Virus record (IMG/VR): IMGVR_UViG_2690316210_000001
Location: 1 to 4,306 of that record
Source of the DNA: a virus
Taxonomy: Duplodnaviria > Heunggongvirae > Uroviricota > Caudoviricetes
Length of the DNA stretch: 4,306 nt
Direction: 5' to 3' (one strand)
The notes beneath the pieces were generated by a model. That model ran no database searches. It saw nothing but the letters and a program-made list of their open reading frames with translations, and was not told the DNA's origin. The position numbers and the translations under genes are program-made. This document shows positions 39-4,306 of this stretch, in pieces (position 1 is the stretch's first letter; every line of letters starts with the position of its first letter).

Positions 39-2531
39 CTAATTAGCGCCAGCTTGAGCAATAGCATCAGCGATAGTTTCATCTAATCGGTCTTGTAAAC
101 CAATCAGGTCTTCCAGTGCTTCTTTGTCCTGATCTTCCCAGCTAATGCTAGACTTCATAGACAAGAAATAAGGTTCAGACCAGACAGCATCATCCATACC
201 GAAAATATCGTAGTGAGCACCACGGATATAATAATCACCATCAGCCAAATCAAAGGAAGTATGGCTAACGCTATTCGTGCTTACCGCCCTTGCATCGGAG
301 AAAGTGTTATCGGTTGCATACTGGATTATTGACCCTGCATAATCATGTTCTACGTCATCTGCCCAGCTAACAAACACACTATTAAAGCCACCACGCGCAC
401 TAAAACCTTCCATTGGCTTATGTTGTGGGTTAATAGCCACTAAACGCGCTGGGGCGCTCTCTGAGTTGTTATATCCCTTAACGGATACTTCTACCGTCAG
501 TTGACGCGAAAGGCCGTTAAACTGGTTCATATCAAGCGTATAAGTCCATGATTCAGGATCGCGGGTACGGTACTGAATAGACTTGCCAGCCTTGTTAGTT
601 ACTTTGATAAGATATGCTTCAAACAGATCACTAAACTTGCTAGTTTCACCGTTGATTTCAACATCTAGACCTTGCTGGTTATCCCATTCGATAATCAGAT
701 CATTGCCTTCGAAAGTACCAGGCGTGCTACCCTGATTTTTGATTCGAATAACCGGAGTCGGTAATTCATAGGTAACAGTAGGATTCTGGTTAATCAGTTC
801 TACCCAATCAGATCTCGCGATGATACCAAAAGCACAAACTCGGTAATCGTAAGAACGATCTTTTGCCAGTGCATTGACACTGAAAATTTGCTGTGAAGTC
901 TGTCCCAGCTTAATCCAGTTAGGTGATCCGCTTACACGGTAATCAATCTGGAAACCATAACGGTTAAAATCTTCAGGTGCATCCCATGTCAAAGTAACGT
1001 TTTTACCATAGATTGTTTCACCAGTTGCCTTAATTCTGAAATTAGTAGGCTTCTGTACTGTCATTGAATCCGGTAAACCGCTTGGTCGGTTATCTGGGTT
1101 AGCCGCATAGTTCAGGTCAGTATAAACCTGAGAATTATATTCTGTGGCGGTGATAGTCATCATCCCAGCAATACCAGAATCAATAGAGCGATCAATTGCA
1201 GTAATACGCCAAAGTGAATTATTCAGTTTCAATTCATCATAGGTTACGCTGATAACGTCCCAAACTTCGGCAGTGAATGCGTCAGTAGTCATGAAGCTGA
1301 TAACCTGAGTGATACGAGATTTATTTCGTTCTACACTCGCGAGTTTATCAATCTGGGCTTTAGACTTAACAAAACGATATTCGATATCCTTAGCAATAAT
1401 TCGACCATCTTGACGAATAGTAGCATCGTTTTCAGCATCAGCCGGATAACGTAGCATTTGCTCGGAATAGTCAATTGATGGTTCCTGATACATCGCGTTA
1501 ATGGTATTGAAATAACCGTTAGTGCCACCTGTTTTCAGTGATACCTTACCCATCATGATATTGTCTTCATTGAAGGTATGCTTAACAATATCAGGAGCAT
1601 CCAGTTTCAGAGTAATTCTTCCGAAGGATTCGAACATCACCCCGCCGAAAGTCTGCATAAGGCTAGTTAAGTTCTCTTTAAAGCTGGCGTTCGGATCACA
1701 TGCACCGTTTGAATGTAAATCCATCTGGCGTACTTGCTTGCGTACTTTCAGGAATGAATCAACGTTGATGTTTTCAATTGGTACACTAAGACCATATTTT
1801 TCATTTGTTAGGTAGTGGAAAATCTGGTCCACGCCGTTGGTGCTGGCTTCAATAGCATTGGTTTCAAGGTTACGAATCTTTAAGCCCATAACATCGACTG
1901 CTACCTGGCTATTTGGCTGGAGAATATCAACACCAGCAGCAAGAGATTTGTCATCACGACGTAACACAATACACATGGTTGCAATACCATTGCCTTTGTA
2001 GTTGTCGTTCCAGTCTGAGCCTAAATGACGTTTTGCCAGTGACAAAGCGGTGTTAGGATTCTTACCCGTGCGGAACTCAACTTCTAAAACTTTTCGGTAT
2101 TCTTCTTTAATGTTGCCTTTGTCCAGTACACCATCACGGATCGTCATGTTCTTACCAACAAGAACATTTTTATTATCGATAAACAGTGCTTTGTAATGGT
2201 CGATTTCACCCTCTGCAATTGCGAAGATTTGCACTAACTTATTGTTTTCTTGCTTGGAAATTGCTTTGTAAACGCAGATTGCACCCGTGCGGGTAGTACC
2301 GAAAAGAACGGGTAATACTGTCTTAGGATCGTTTGATGTTCCTAGTGTCACCGCATTATCTGGGCTTTGTACTTTCGGTGTTTTTGGTGCGCCTACAGTG
2401 GAAGCGATCAAAGTCATTGCACCAGCAGCCATACCGATAGCGACTGCGGTCATAACCGAAAATGTTGCGGCTGCCGCCATCCCCGCCGAAGCACCAGCAA
2501 TAACCGCGCCTACCAATACTTCAAATCCCAT
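39..2531 (-). CDS. Phage tail-tip hub / host-specificity protein J-like (830 aa), with N-terminal hydrophobic segment resembling tail assembly protein I and three FN3/Ig-like modules; lacks a C-terminal fibre/receptor-binding region
   Basis: Uninterrupted 831-codon frame. ATG at 2529..2531 overlaps the upstream stop as TAATG (minus strand) and is preceded by GGGGGTGA (plus 2535..2542), a one-mismatch match to the GGAGGTGA consensus. Residues ~95-260 (e.g. LVQIFAIAEGEIDHY, IFHYLTNEKYGLSVPIENINVDSF) resemble the N-terminal hub region of lambda J family proteins as I recall them. Residues ~495-790 show FN3 hallmarks (TLTWDAP, YDYRVCAFG, DYYIRGAHYD). Stop TAG at 39..41. Confidence 0.75.
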   Translation of the reverse strand: MGFEVLVGAVIAGASAGMAAAATFSVMTAVAIGMAAGAMTLIASTVGAPKTPKVQSPDNAVTLGTSNDPKTVLPVLFGTTRTGAICVYKAISKQENNKLVQIFAIAEGEIDHYKALFIDNKNVLVGKNMTIRDGVLDKGNIKEEYRKVLEVEFRTGKNPNTALSLAKRHLGSDWNDNYKGNGIATMCIVLRRDDKSLAAGVDILQPNSQVAVDVMGLKIRNLETNAIEASTNGVDQIFHYLTNEKYGLSVPIENINVDSFLKVRKQVRQMDLHSNGACDPNASFKENLTSLMQTFGGVMFESFGRITLKLDAPDIVKHTFNEDNIMMGKVSLKTGGTNGYFNTINAMYQEPSIDYSEQMLRYPADAENDATIRQDGRIIAKDIEYRFVKSKAQIDKLASVERNKSRITQVISFMTTDAFTAEVWDVISVTYDELKLNNSLWRITAIDRSIDSGIAGMMTITATEYNSQVYTDLNYAANPDNRPSGLPDSMTVQKPTNFRIKATGETIYGKNVTLTWDAPEDFNRYGFQIDYRVSGSPNWIKLGQTSQQIFSVNALAKDRSYDYRVCAFGIIARSDWVELINQNPTVTYELPTPVIRIKNQGSTPGTFEGNDLIIEWDNQQGLDVEINGETSKFSDLFEAYLIKVTNKAGKSIQYRTRDPESWTYTLDMNQFNGLSRQLTVEVSVKGYNNSESAPARLVAINPQHKPMEGFSARGGFNSVFVSWADDVEHDYAGSIIQYATDNTFSDARAVSTNSVSHTSFDLADGDYYIRGAHYDIFGMDDAVWSEPYFLSMKSSISWEDQDKEALEDLIGLQDRLDETIADAIAQAGAN
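162..1055 (-). other. Three tandem FN3/Ig-like beta-sandwich modules in the C-terminal third of the J-like protein (approx. nt 798..1055, 432..761, 162..419)
   Basis: Module 1 (aa ~493-578): VTLTWDAPEDF...YGFQIDYRV...YDYRVCAFG. Module 2 (aa ~591-700): LIIEWDNQ...YLIKV...LTVEVSVKGY. Module 3 (aa ~705-790): VFVSWADD...IIQYATD...DYYIRGAHYD. Boundaries are approximate. Confidence 0.55.
2388..2531 (-). other. Region encoding the Gly/Ala-rich hydrophobic N-terminal segment (aa 1-48) of the J-like protein; putative membrane-active or tail-lumen segment
   Basis: Translated sequence MGFEVLVGAVIAGASAGMAAAATFSVMTAVAIGMAAGAMTLIASTVGAPKTPK has one charged residue (E4) before the KTPK linker and repeated small-xxx-small spacing. 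The region is locally GC-rich from Ala/Gly codons. Confidence 0.55.
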
Positions 2532-2950
2532 TATTCACCCCCGAATCTATAAACTTGTTCATAGTCAATGTCTGAAACAGGAATGGTCATCCAGATACCA
2601 TCTTCTTCAACGAGGCCATAACCGGAATAATGAGGAACTACGGAATAATAATTACGGTTTCCTAATTTGTGGGCTGTGACCAGTAAGTCGCCGTCCTGTA
2701 AATCATCAGTGACTAATTTGAAATGTTTCTTAATTGGTTGAAGGATATTTGAATACCCGCTTAATTCTTTGCAGATTTTCAAACCTTCTTCTTTAGTTGA
2801 ATATTTTTTATAAAGAGAATTATATAGGTCAGTACCAGCGAGAATATCGATGATCTTACATGCAATTAGATTGCAATCATTCTCACCCTGAACGAACTCC
2901 TGACCTATTAAAGAATTGATGTAATCGGTGATAAGCCTAGTTTTTAGCAT
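2531..2950 (-). CDS. Putative NlpC/P60-like cysteine peptidase tail protein (139 aa), lambda K-like by position
   Basis: ATG at 2948..2950 is preceded by GGAGGT (plus 2958..2963) with a 7-nt spacer; stop TAA at 2531..2533 shares one base with the next start. Candidate catalytic residues in NlpC/P60-like order: Cys in GENDCNLIACK, then GDLLVTAHK and VVPHYSGYG. The ORF-track start at 3106 has no SD and overlaps the upstream gene by 110 nt, so the first 52 codons are probably not translated. Confidence 0.5.
   Translation of the reverse strand: MLKTRLITDYINSLIGQEFVQGENDCNLIACKIIDILAGTDLYNSLYKKYSTKEEGLKICKELSGYSNILQPIKKHFKLVTDDLQDGDLLVTAHKLGNRNYYSVVPHYSGYGLVEEDGIWMTIPVSDIDYEQVYRFGGE
2535..2542 (-). 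promoter_or_regulatory. Shine-Dalgarno-like GGGGGTGA for the J-like gene, embedded in the last codons of the peptidase gene
   Basis: Plus TCACCCCC at 2535..2542 is GGGGGTGA on the minus strand, 3 nt 5' of ATG 2529..2531 (6 nt after the G-run). Confidence 0.5.
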
Positions 2951-2957
2951 GTTGAAT

Positions 2958-2963
2958 ACCTCC
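2958..2963 (-). promoter_or_regulatory. Shine-Dalgarno GGAGGT for the peptidase gene
   Basis: Plus ACCTCC at 2958..2963 is GGAGGT on the minus strand, 7 nt 5' of ATG 2948..2950. Confidence 0.55.
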
Positions 2964-2996
2964 ATGCTGTTATTTACTAGGCTTAGGGAGAAGGGA

Positions 2997-3650
2997 TTAT
3001 TTCTTCGATGAATGCCACTTGCTTTCGCTATTCCACTTCCCGGCACGGGAGAAGAATAGATCGTTCTCGTTTCCGGCATAGGATCGGTGGATACCATCGG
3101 AGGCATGACTACGAGCGTTTTTATCTAGAACTTCCCAGATACTATTAAGCTGAAATTCTGATTCGTTTTTACACTCATCATCTTCATGTTCGATGTTAAT
3201 CCCGATGGAATCGACTACCCCACGGAAAACAGGGTAAGTGGTTTCAACTTTGCCCGTGTTGGGGTTAAGGAAAACCATCTCGATTTTCACATCTGATTTA
3301 TCGAATTGCTTGTTTCGAATGAGAGTAATGTATTCTTCGCGAACGTTAGAAACAGTTACGTTGATCCCGTTGTTGTTGATCTCCTTCTCTTCGGTATTCG
3401 ATGAGATTTGAAGAAAATCACCCGTTGCGAGATACGTAAATCCGTTATAGTCCAAATCGAAATACCCATCTGTAAGCCGTAGAACGTCCCCTGACGCTGT
3501 TATCACTTCGATAATGTGAAACATCGATCCAGTGGAGAAAAGCTGCGGTAGCGTCAATCTAGACACGTTCTGACCTGTCTGGTCGTTGTACACCTCGATG
3601 AAGTCCAGATTAGTGCATAGTTTGCTGAATGATTCCTGAATAGTTGCCAT
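2997..3650 (-). CDS. Minor tail protein (217 aa), tentatively lambda L-like by size and position
   Basis: ATG at 3648..3650 overlaps the upstream TAA (3650..3652) as TAATG and has GGAG (plus 3659..3662) 8 nt upstream. The ORF-track start at 3704 is a TTG with no SD. Only two Cys residues, so no four-Cys cluster motif is present. Family assignment rests on synteny and size only. Confidence 0.45.
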   Translation of the reverse strand: MATIQESFSKLCTNLDFIEVYNDQTGQNVSRLTLPQLFSTGSMFHIIEVITASGDVLRLTDGYFDLDYNGFTYLATGDFLQISSNTEEKEINNNGINVTVSNVREEYITLIRNKQFDKSDVKIEMVFLNPNTGKVETTYPVFRGVVDSIGINIEHEDDECKNESEFQLNSIWEVLDKNARSHASDGIHRSYAGNENDLFFSRAGKWNSESKWHSSKK

Positions 3651-4210
3651 TATACATTCTCCACTAATTCGAATTTCATCTTGCCAATCTGGGCGATCTT
3701 CCAATCGATATTTTCAGTTTTGAGAACAAATTCACCCTCTACGTTCTGATACTTGATCACCTCACCCGCTAGAACGTTCTGACGCAAGTTAGGGAAGAGT
3801 TTCATTTCACCACCTGATTTCACGTCTTCGGTGATCGTGTAGATTTTCTTGTGGTTCTCAAACTGGATGATAGTTCCTGCTTTCAGTGTTCCGGTGAAGT
3901 TGGAGATTCTCACCTTACGCCCACCGCGAGCAGTACCAGCAGCAGCCGTAACCATCTGGCGTACATCACCTGTATATTTTGAAAAGTAAGACAGCGGCAC
4001 ACTGAAAGGACGACCAAAAAGGTGACGTGCTACAAATTCTTTTACTTCGTTAATATCCTGAGCCATGAAATTAGCGGTAAATTCTGCTTCATAAAAATGA
4101 ATACCAGTAAAGCGACGCTGGAACTTACCAGAAATAGATTGCGCCTTGAAGAAAGGCTGTTTTGATTTAAGAGTAAAATCTGTGATTTTAATATTTTTGG
4201 ATTTGAACAT
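3650..4210 (-). CDS. Minor/distal tail protein (186 aa), tentatively lambda M-like by position
   Basis: Open frame ending TAA at 3650..3652. ATG at 4208..4210 (MFKSKNIKITDF...) lies just 3' of the hairpin and U-run on the minus strand, with a GGGGG run 8 nt upstream. The ORF-track start at 4246 is a GTG that places the hairpin inside the coding sequence; ATG at 4223..4225 is a third candidate. The C-terminus KMKFELVENV and the basic N-terminus weakly recall lambda M from memory. Confidence 0.45.
   Translation of the reverse strand: MFKSKNIKITDFTLKSKQPFFKAQSISGKFQRRFTGIHFYEAEFTANFMAQDINEVKEFVARHLFGRPFSVPLSYFSKYTGDVRQMVTAAAGTARGGRKVRISNFTGTLKAGTIIQFENHKKIYTITEDVKSGGEMKLFPNLRQNVLAGEVIKYQNVEGEFVLKTENIDWKIAQIGKMKFELVENV
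3659..3662 (-). promoter_or_regulatory. Shine-Dalgarno GGAG for the 217-aa minor tail protein gene
   Basis: Plus CTCC at 3659..3662 is GGAG on the minus strand, 8 nt 5' of ATG 3648..3650, within the 3' end of the upstream gene. Confidence 0.45.
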
Positions 4211-4212
4211 AG

Positions 4213-4258
4213 AAAAAGCCCCCATAGTTTTATGATTATTTATCACTATGGGGGGCTT
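4213..4258 (-). terminator. Putative intrinsic terminator / mRNA-stabilising hairpin on the minus strand
   Basis: Plus 4216..4227 AAGCCCCCATAG pairs with 4246..4258 CTATGGGGGGCTT (12-13 bp stem, one bulged G, AT-rich ~16-18 nt loop). The minus-strand RNA reads stem-GGGGGCUUUUUCUAUG, a U-run immediately 3' of the stem. The loop is larger than in typical terminators. Confidence 0.4.
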
Positions 4259-4306
4259 GGTGATGCTGCCAACTTACTGATTTAGTGTATGATGGTGTTT
4301 TTGAGG

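Follow-up and report, generated by a model that had tools for sequence, protein, structure and literature searches.

At the upstream end of a short run of phage tail genes in Shigella sonnei, a GC-rich inverted repeat followed by a run of uridines overlaps the region in which translation of the first gene appears to begin. Does this structure end the transcript of the gene before it, govern translation of the gene behind it, or do both? The window analysed here is the whole 4306-bp draft contig CXAQ01000216.1 of assembly GCA_001261215.1, all of whose genes lie on the minus strand. The original prediction preferred a partial terminator, or an RNA-stabilising hairpin, at this position, and named a structured translation-initiation region as the alternative.

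The locus is a prophage remnant bounded by insertion sequences

Phage-derived DNA is limited to positions 42 to 4258 of the window. When the window was compared by megablast with complete E. coli genomes, 54 genomes aligned over exactly 42..4258 or 42..4254, with approximately 96% identity. The parts of the window are as follows.

1 to 41, no strand assigned: IS2 terminus, one contig end (100% match to annotated IS2, phage SfX)
39 to 2531, minus strand: tail-tip protein, truncated to 830 aa from the 1258 aa of intact relatives; the TAG stop is supplied by the IS2 end
2531 to 2950, minus strand: 139-aa DUF6950 protein (PF22262)
2997 to 3650, minus strand: 217-aa baseplate-hub N-terminal-domain protein (PF09931 and phrog_2048)
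3650 to 4210, minus strand: 186-aa distal-tail-protein-like (Dit-like) gene (phrog_1302 distal tail protein, E = 2.6e-16; weak Pfam match to the pb9 B-domain; start as called by PGAP in relatives)
4259 to 4306, no strand assigned: IS1 terminal inverted repeat and adjoining IS1 sequence (100% match to phage P1 records annotated 'terminal IR of IS1')

The matches to intact prophages end at 4258, and IS1, from 4259 onward, directly abuts the hairpin and forms the other end of the contig. The assembly evidently broke inside the IS1 and IS2 repeats. The IS1 junction falls within the A-run at the foot of the stem, and the outermost A-U pairs that the ancestral stem possessed have been lost to IS1 in the window. 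At the opposite end, where the contig runs out within IS2, the IS2 terminus leaves the first 830 of the 1258 codons of the tail-tip gene.

The intact element is a prophage of approximately 35 kb integrated in ycdX of E. coli, Shigella and Salmonella, with one long late operon that encodes terminase, portal, capsid, tail fibre, tail tube, tape measure, Dit, hub, DUF6950, tip and lysis proteins. One intact copy occupies 2.889-2.924 Mb of E. coli VTB96775v (NZ_CP178634). The gene upstream of the hairpin in these prophages encodes an 809-aa tape-measure protein (PHROG E = 4e-66), as had been anticipated from synteny; in the window itself, however, this expectation fails, as there is no upstream gene and the stem abuts IS1. 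With IS1 next to the hairpin at the place of the tape measure in intact prophages, the tip gene cut short by IS2 and the outer A-U pairs of the stem lost, the hairpin in the Shigella sonnei contig is a relic, and the locus is a prophage remnant without a live upstream gene.

IS1 fusion promoters have been documented (Prentki 1986, as cited in PMC9330008). On the minus strand between 4245 and 4272, the IS1-end hexamer TTGGCA (4272-4267) is followed after 16 nt by CATAGT (4250-4245) in the hairpin 5' arm. This pair could form such a promoter, and transcripts from it would be missing the greater part of the 5' arm; the pair matches at 9 of 12 positions, and matches of this quality are not enriched over shuffled sequences.

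Some features of the intact element lie away from the tail-tip genes. In L071, an uncharacterised ORF of 200 aa (28234-28836) runs divergently from terminase and is a first candidate for a sigma-like factor. In L071 also, the non-structural arm contains, at 31069-32454, about 1.1-1.4 kb without an annotated gene and with almost no ORF of at least 50 aa. The long gaps after the capsid and tail-tube genes of the same element (21953-22102 and 16159-16332) have a common repeated segment (…ACGGCGAAAGCCACAGCTAAA…), and both end in the identical terminator GCCCTGCC-TTAAT-GGTGGGGC-TTTTTT; the segment may represent a 3' module that was duplicated or a C-terminal extension that annotation has missed.

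The Dit-like gene starts downstream of the hairpin

The mechanical ORF list begins a 198-aa ORF at the GTG at 4246, inside the hairpin, and the original prediction placed the real start instead at the ATG at 4208-4210. This placement proved correct: PGAP calls this start in intact relatives, and Dit homologues down to 42% identity align from the Met encoded there. Moreover, the T-run is polymorphic, with four or five residues, and as a result neither the upstream AUG (4225-4223) nor the GUG (4246-4244) is in frame in 23 of 37 close relatives; in many of them, GUC stands in place of the GUG. The fifth T of the window brings the upstream AUG into frame by accident. The 198-aa ORF is therefore an artefact of mechanical ORF calling, and the annotation should be fixed at ATG 4208-4210, giving 186 rather than 198 aa.

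With the start so placed, the spacer between the tape-measure and Dit genes is 50-60 nt across the prophage family. In the window clade it amounts to 50 nt from the tape-measure TAA, which lies 3 nt before the stem, to the Dit ATG, and reads TAA UUA AAAGCCC(C/U)CAUAG U(G/C)AUAAAUAAUCAUAAAA CUAUGGGGGCUUUU(U) CU AUG.

Geometry of the hairpin

An inverted repeat of 12-13 bp followed by UUUUUCU is present as described, with 4216-4227 pairing with 4246-4258 around one bulged C; its ungapped perfect core is 10 bp long (4219-4228 with 4245-4254). The order on the minus-strand RNA is 5' arm, loop, 3' arm, U-run (4217-4213), CU and the AUG at 4210-4208.

4246 to 4258, minus strand: hairpin 5' arm AAGCCCCCCAUAG, with the anti-Shine-Dalgarno C-run and one bulged C (from the fold; covaries with the 3' arm in relatives)
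4228 to 4245, minus strand: 18-nt A/U-rich loop UGAUAAAUAAUCAUAAAA (from the fold)
4216 to 4227, minus strand: hairpin 3' arm CUAUGGGGGCUU (from the fold and covariation)
4219 to 4223, minus strand: Shine-Dalgarno (SD) G-run, GGGGG, for the Dit-like gene; it lies 8 nt upstream of the AUG, entirely within the stem (matches the SD consensus of the prophage)
4211 to 4217, minus strand: UUUUUCU, at once the U-run after the stem and the SD-to-AUG spacer (T-run of 4 or 5 in relatives)

Folding of the minus-strand segment 4195-4275 with RNAfold, a check of the kind originally proposed, gave -22.5 kcal/mol (z = -3.7), and only 1 of 200 dinucleotide shuffles folded as well. Homopolymer lengths vary among close relatives, from 4 to 6 in the C-run (4250-4255), from 5 to 6 in the G-run (4219-4223) and from 4 to 5 in the T-run (4213-4217). 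The bulge of the stem comes from the sixth C of the window. Within the loop, an inner helix, UGAU/AUCA, would shorten the loop, but a G/C polymorphism that is common in the window clade disrupts it, and it is therefore not essential; in the Salmonella clade an inner helix of 4-5 bp lengthens the structure to approximately 18 bp with a bulge. A scan of the whole window with the Rfam covariance models, at E <= 1, returned no match.

The stem is maintained by compensatory changes

Relatives were taken from IMG/VR, and intermediates with 68-92% Dit identity, from E. coli and Salmonella, were obtained by protein search and subsequent contig look-ups. A first scan of contigs with a single Dit protein yielded no relatives, and a profile scan yielded one metagenome-assembled contig, which duplicates an IMG/VR lineage.

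The same hairpin folds in every relative with 68-100% Dit identity, while the arms themselves differ: they read GCCUCC/GGAGGC in L074, AGACCCCCUAG/CUAGGGGGUCU in L076-78, AAAUACCCCCUAG/CUAGGGGGUAUUU in L079, L081 and L082, and CCCCCUUGG/CUAAGGGGG in L080. Fifteen distinct sequences were aligned by hand on the structure, starting from the loop-closing pair, a procedure that favours the stem; in this alignment, 99.5% of 194 stem cells pair. The search for compensatory changes that had been suggested gave a positive result, with such changes at 5 of the 13 pairs (17 cells). The covariation score was 0.311, compared with 0.106 for shuffles (0 of 500 reached 0.311) and at most 0.061 for slid controls. 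Each of the five wobble cells reads U.G or G.U in the sense RNA and would be an A.C mismatch on the opposite strand, which indicates that selection acts on the sense RNA. An unguided MAFFT alignment was dropped; it sets the arms out of register because of one-base shifts around the C/G core between lineages, and RNAalifold recovered only 5 pairs from it.

This comparative evidence is the strongest indication that the hairpin is more than a chance repeat, and at the level of sequence comparison it shows that a selected RNA structure occupies the tape-measure/Dit spacer.

The stem encloses the ribosome-binding site

The SD consensus of the prophage is AAGGGGTAA or GGGGGTA (AAGGGGUAA or GGGGGUA in RNA form), of the GGGG(G/T) type. 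Apart from the G-run of the 3' arm, no SD-like element precedes the Dit ATG; the G-run lies 7-9 nt upstream of this ATG in every relative. In L074 the SD is a canonical GGAGG, and the change is compensated by CCTCC in the other arm. The stem keeps a fixed distance to the ATG, whereas its distance from the stop codon varies between 3 and 12 nt among intact relatives from E. coli and Salmonella. What the structure is tied to is therefore the initiation region of the downstream gene.

The alternative reading of the original prediction, a structured initiation region that masks the GGGGG run, is thus supported, with the G-run at 4219-4223 paired in the fold. Calculated for eight family members, opening of the region from SD to AUG costs 18.9-26.5 kcal/mol in read-through RNA, as opposed to 3.3-6.3 kcal/mol in RNA initiated at the loop box described below. 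For the window, the calculated cost falls from 18.9 to 3.8 kcal/mol when the RNA starts at 4231. These modelled energies suggest that the hairpin would mask translation in vivo.

The hairpin looks like a weak or borderline terminator

Several traits of a terminator are present, namely the stem of 12-13 bp, the C5-6/G5 core, a hairpin energy of -17.2 kcal/mol and the UUUUUCU that follows. A co-directional gene upstream of the hairpin is found in intact relatives and is missing in the window, where IS1 adjoins the stem. A consensus terminator scan of the window with a loop limit of 8 nt does not call the hairpin, because its loop of 16-18 nt exceeds this limit. By a d'Aubenton-Carafa-type formula, the d-score of the window is +4.8 and those of relatives range from -6 to +17.5, being positive in most and negative in the common variants with 4 Ts, whereas the terminators that follow the capsid and tail-tube genes reach +34. 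The partial-terminator reading that was originally put first therefore has evidence behind it, yet the terminator is at best a weak one; judged by its sequence, the hairpin is probably a weak or borderline intrinsic terminator.

An invariant box in the loop resembles a T4 late promoter

What the original mechanism overlooked is an invariant box in the loop that resembles a T4 late promoter, and its presence changes which mechanism is the most likely one.

4237 to 4244, minus strand: GATAAATA box (4244-4237), candidate internal promoter (7 of 8 positions match the T4 late promoter TATAAATA; invariant while the stem covaries)
4231, minus strand: predicted +1 if the box acts like a T4 late promoter (spacing rule of PMC1524935); RNA from 4231 would be without the 5' arm

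The box has the form (G/C)AUAAAUA, and its TAAATA columns are invariant across relatives whose stems have changed. Both NATAAATA and CTAAATA are published variants of T4-type late promoters, at positions -13 to -6 (PMC1524935). In the 1431 intergenic nt of the late operon (L071 3450-28300), TAAATA is the commonest sense-strand 6-mer, with 11 copies as opposed to 1 on the antisense strand, and the 23420 nt of coding sequence contain 6 copies. Most copies in the operon lie 25-42 nt before start codons. Of 20 independent lineages, 15 have TAAATA at 27-40 nt upstream of the Dit ATG, where 0.92 would be expected. These 15 lineages include some with 33-40% protein identity and unalignable spacers, in which the box often directly follows a textbook terminator.

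Promoter activity of the box is suggested by these motif statistics and by analogy with T4 only. The A/U-rich boxes upstream of the SD could instead be translational enhancers. No homologue of gp55, gp33 or gp45 was detected in the intact prophage with PHROGs, Pfam or tblastn searches using DCP80 gp55, gp33 and gp45. Two other promoter types were considered and rejected on reading the sequence: a sigma-70 promoter in the loop would have no usable -35 element, and its -10-like hexamers are without a T at -7, and a sigma-32-like CCCCATnT in the 5' arm is without a -35 element.

The design recurs in the prophage

The combination of a box and an occluding hairpin is found at a minimum of five sites in the prophage: upstream of terminase, between tape measure and Dit, at the junction from hub to DUF6950, in front of a 115-aa gene close to the lysis genes and in front of the last gene. 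One of these further sites lies in the window.

2932 to 2985, minus strand: second, nested hairpin at the hub-to-DUF6950 junction (outer perfect stem of 10 bp, 2985-2976 with 2941-2932; TAAATA at 2976-2971)

Here, the outer 3' arm falls in codons 4-7 of the DUF6950 gene and TAAATA is located where the 5' arm ends. The start codon (2950-2948) is paired in the inner stem, AGCAUG/CAUGCU, for which Salmonella relatives show covariation, from AGCATG/CATGCT to ATCATG/CATGAT. At the sister hairpins before terminase and before the 115-aa gene, the close relatives available show almost no variation from which covariation could be judged. In most gaps of the L071 late operon, the stop codon is also immediately followed by a GC hairpin, in some cases with a UUCG loop.

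A different arrangement is seen in the distant relatives L035, L036-L039, L041 and L045-L049 (around 2940-3000). There, Dit and hub form a two-gene unit without an upstream tape measure, and a divergent gene of 161-173 aa lies upstream of Dit. The two start codons are separated by a palindrome of 13-18 bp, perfect in L039 and L046 and imperfect in the other distant lineages, each arm of which carries an SD, with a TAAATA box on the other strand.

The only phage record with a close homologue is PQ671644.1 (L040, L083-L085), Escherichia phage DCP80, which is filed under Straboviridae and looks misassembled: it contains three copies of rIIA and duplicated exonuclease and primase genes. The record starts with a structural module of approximately 23 kb that encodes a long-tailed-phage tail (tape measure/Dit) and is syntenic with the prophage, although its Dit and DUF6950 genes are unannotated. 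In this homologous module the junctions are canonical, consisting of a terminator and TATAAATA. Since the record is a scrambled assembly, it cannot prove a link to T4; it was set aside as evidence for one, and only the motif content of the homologous module was used. A search with the capsid protein found no second T4-like record with this structural module.

A proposed composite element and its alternatives

We tentatively favour a reading, by analogy with T4 gene e, in which the hairpin is a composite element, an attenuator and SD mask on read-through RNA that is bypassed by RNA initiated at the box. RNA reading through from the tape-measure gene would fold the hairpin, which as a weak intrinsic terminator would terminate a fraction of these transcripts and, on the remainder, would lock the ribosome-binding site at an opening cost of 19-26 kcal/mol. 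RNA started at the loop box, with its +1 near 4231, would be without the 5' arm, and its site would stand open at 3-6 kcal/mol. Synthesis of the tail-tip proteins would then follow box-driven transcription and not read-through. This composite element is favoured on the grounds of the T4-like layout, the fall in opening energy and the recurrence of the design. Conservation of the U-run counts against it, as SD masking alone would not require a U-run.

The layout is known from T4 genes e, soc, 49 and I-TevI, in which a helix sequesters the SD on long read-through RNA, and the late-promoter transcript, which is without the 5' strand, is translated (PMC3014915, PMC2988022). The window shares this layout with these masked initiation regions, and with those of segB and Aeh1 mobE, having its SD in the 3' arm and GATAAATA in the loop. 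However, there are principal differences. The host here is a temperate prophage of approximately 35 kb with a tape measure/Dit tail module and no detectable gp55, gp33 or gp45; the helix is trailed by a U-run, a late structural gene precedes it, and promoter activity is proposed by analogy. The contrast would also lie between read-through and box-initiated late RNA rather than between early and late RNA.

It is doubtful, yet quite possible, that the hairpin is instead a leaky intrinsic terminator or a 3'-end-stabilising hairpin that closes the tape-measure transcript, that its overlap with the SD results from the short spacer and that TAAATA is no promoter. With its A-tract, GC-rich stem and 4-5 Us directly after a stop codon, the hairpin has the exact look of a plain intrinsic (Rho-independent) terminator of phage late operons, and its d-scores are positive in most relatives, at +4.8 in the window and up to +17.5. 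A GC hairpin lies just after the stop codon in every lineage with a co-directional tape measure, in textbook form in L051-55 and L061-62, and such hairpins occur in most gaps of the late operon. Clear terminators of this prophage follow the capsid, tail-tube, tip and endolysin genes. Yet the hairpin differs from an ordinary terminator: its loop has 16-18 nt, its U-run is short, its score is far below +34 and negative in the common 4-T variants, and its stem contains the SD of the next gene. The distance that is conserved is the one to the ATG and not that to the stop codon, and the change of the SD from GGGGG to GGAGG is compensated in the other arm. A structure of 19-26 kcal/mol over the only SD would, moreover, silence an essential tail gene on read-through RNA unless it were relieved, and the sister hairpins with the same arms have no U-run. 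As for stabilisation, intercistronic stabiliser hairpins such as REP elements and the UUCG-loop hairpins of T4 are GC hairpins immediately 3' of a cistron that leave the downstream SD free, whereas the hairpin of the window pairs it. UUCG-loop hairpins do occur in the prophage after the terminase gene, and in DCP80 at the tape-measure/Dit junction.

The complete pairing of the SD would suit a pure translational attenuator or coupling device without an internal promoter, which would keep the Dit and tip proteins at low copy and be opened by ribosomes finishing the tape measure. The distribution of masking in the operon agrees with such a device, as the SD is masked in low-copy genes (terminase, Dit and the small gene near the lysis genes) and open in the capsid and tail-tube genes, and in the window clade the stop codon is only 3 nt from the stem. 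In L079-L082, however, 10-12 nt separate the stop codon from the stem, a distance at which a terminating ribosome could melt the first pairs at most, and with a stop-to-stem distance of 3-12 nt across relatives such opening is unlikely to be general. In translational-coupling hairpins of the MS2 coat/replicase type, the downstream ribosome site is likewise closed by pairing, with the masking strand inside the upstream ORF and opened by translation. The 5' arm here, unlike in those classic coupling hairpins, is non-coding and starts outside the upstream ORF, after the tape-measure stop. The invariant, strand-specific loop box would also be left unexplained, and a pure device of this kind is unlikely.

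Intercistronic stem-loops throughout the operon, and the approximately 18-bp bulged structure of the Salmonella clade, are what might be expected of an RNase III or RNase E processing site between the tape-measure and tail-tip segments of the mRNA. This is very improbable, as the stem of the window clade has only 12-13 bp and a broken inner helix, which is short of about two helical turns of double-stranded RNA, and Rfam contains no match.

Hardly any weight can be given to a DNA-level palindrome serving a dimeric regulator or to a chance repeat: perfect 13-18 bp palindromes do separate the start codons of divergently transcribed distant relatives, but the arms change between lineages and yet stay complementary, contrary to what a protein-binding site would show, and the wobble pairs would turn into A.C mismatches if read from the opposite strand, so that an operator is largely refuted and chance is excluded by the shuffles and the covariation.

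Implications

The types of control considered here are already known in phages; it is the phage family that is unexpected. The hairpin provides a clean, covariation-supported case in which one structure is both terminator-like and ribosome-binding-site-masking, and the strand-specific NATAAATA box recurs before the structural genes of a common, unstudied family of enterobacterial prophages. If the box is a promoter, the composite element would place the control logic of T4 gene e well outside the T4-like phages, and a factor that recognises the motif would be there to be found. A broader proposal, which we regard as speculative and rather unlikely, is that T4-type late-promoter boxes (NATAAATA/CTAAATA) direct the entire structural operon in the widespread ycdX prophage family of approximately 35 kb (E. 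coli, Shigella and Salmonella), with five or more of the boxes set in hairpins that occlude ribosome-binding sites on read-through RNA, although the family encodes no recognisable gp55, gp33 or gp45. Were this so, the family would either carry an unrecognised late sigma factor or activator, or depend, in the manner of a satellite, on a superinfecting T4-like phage.
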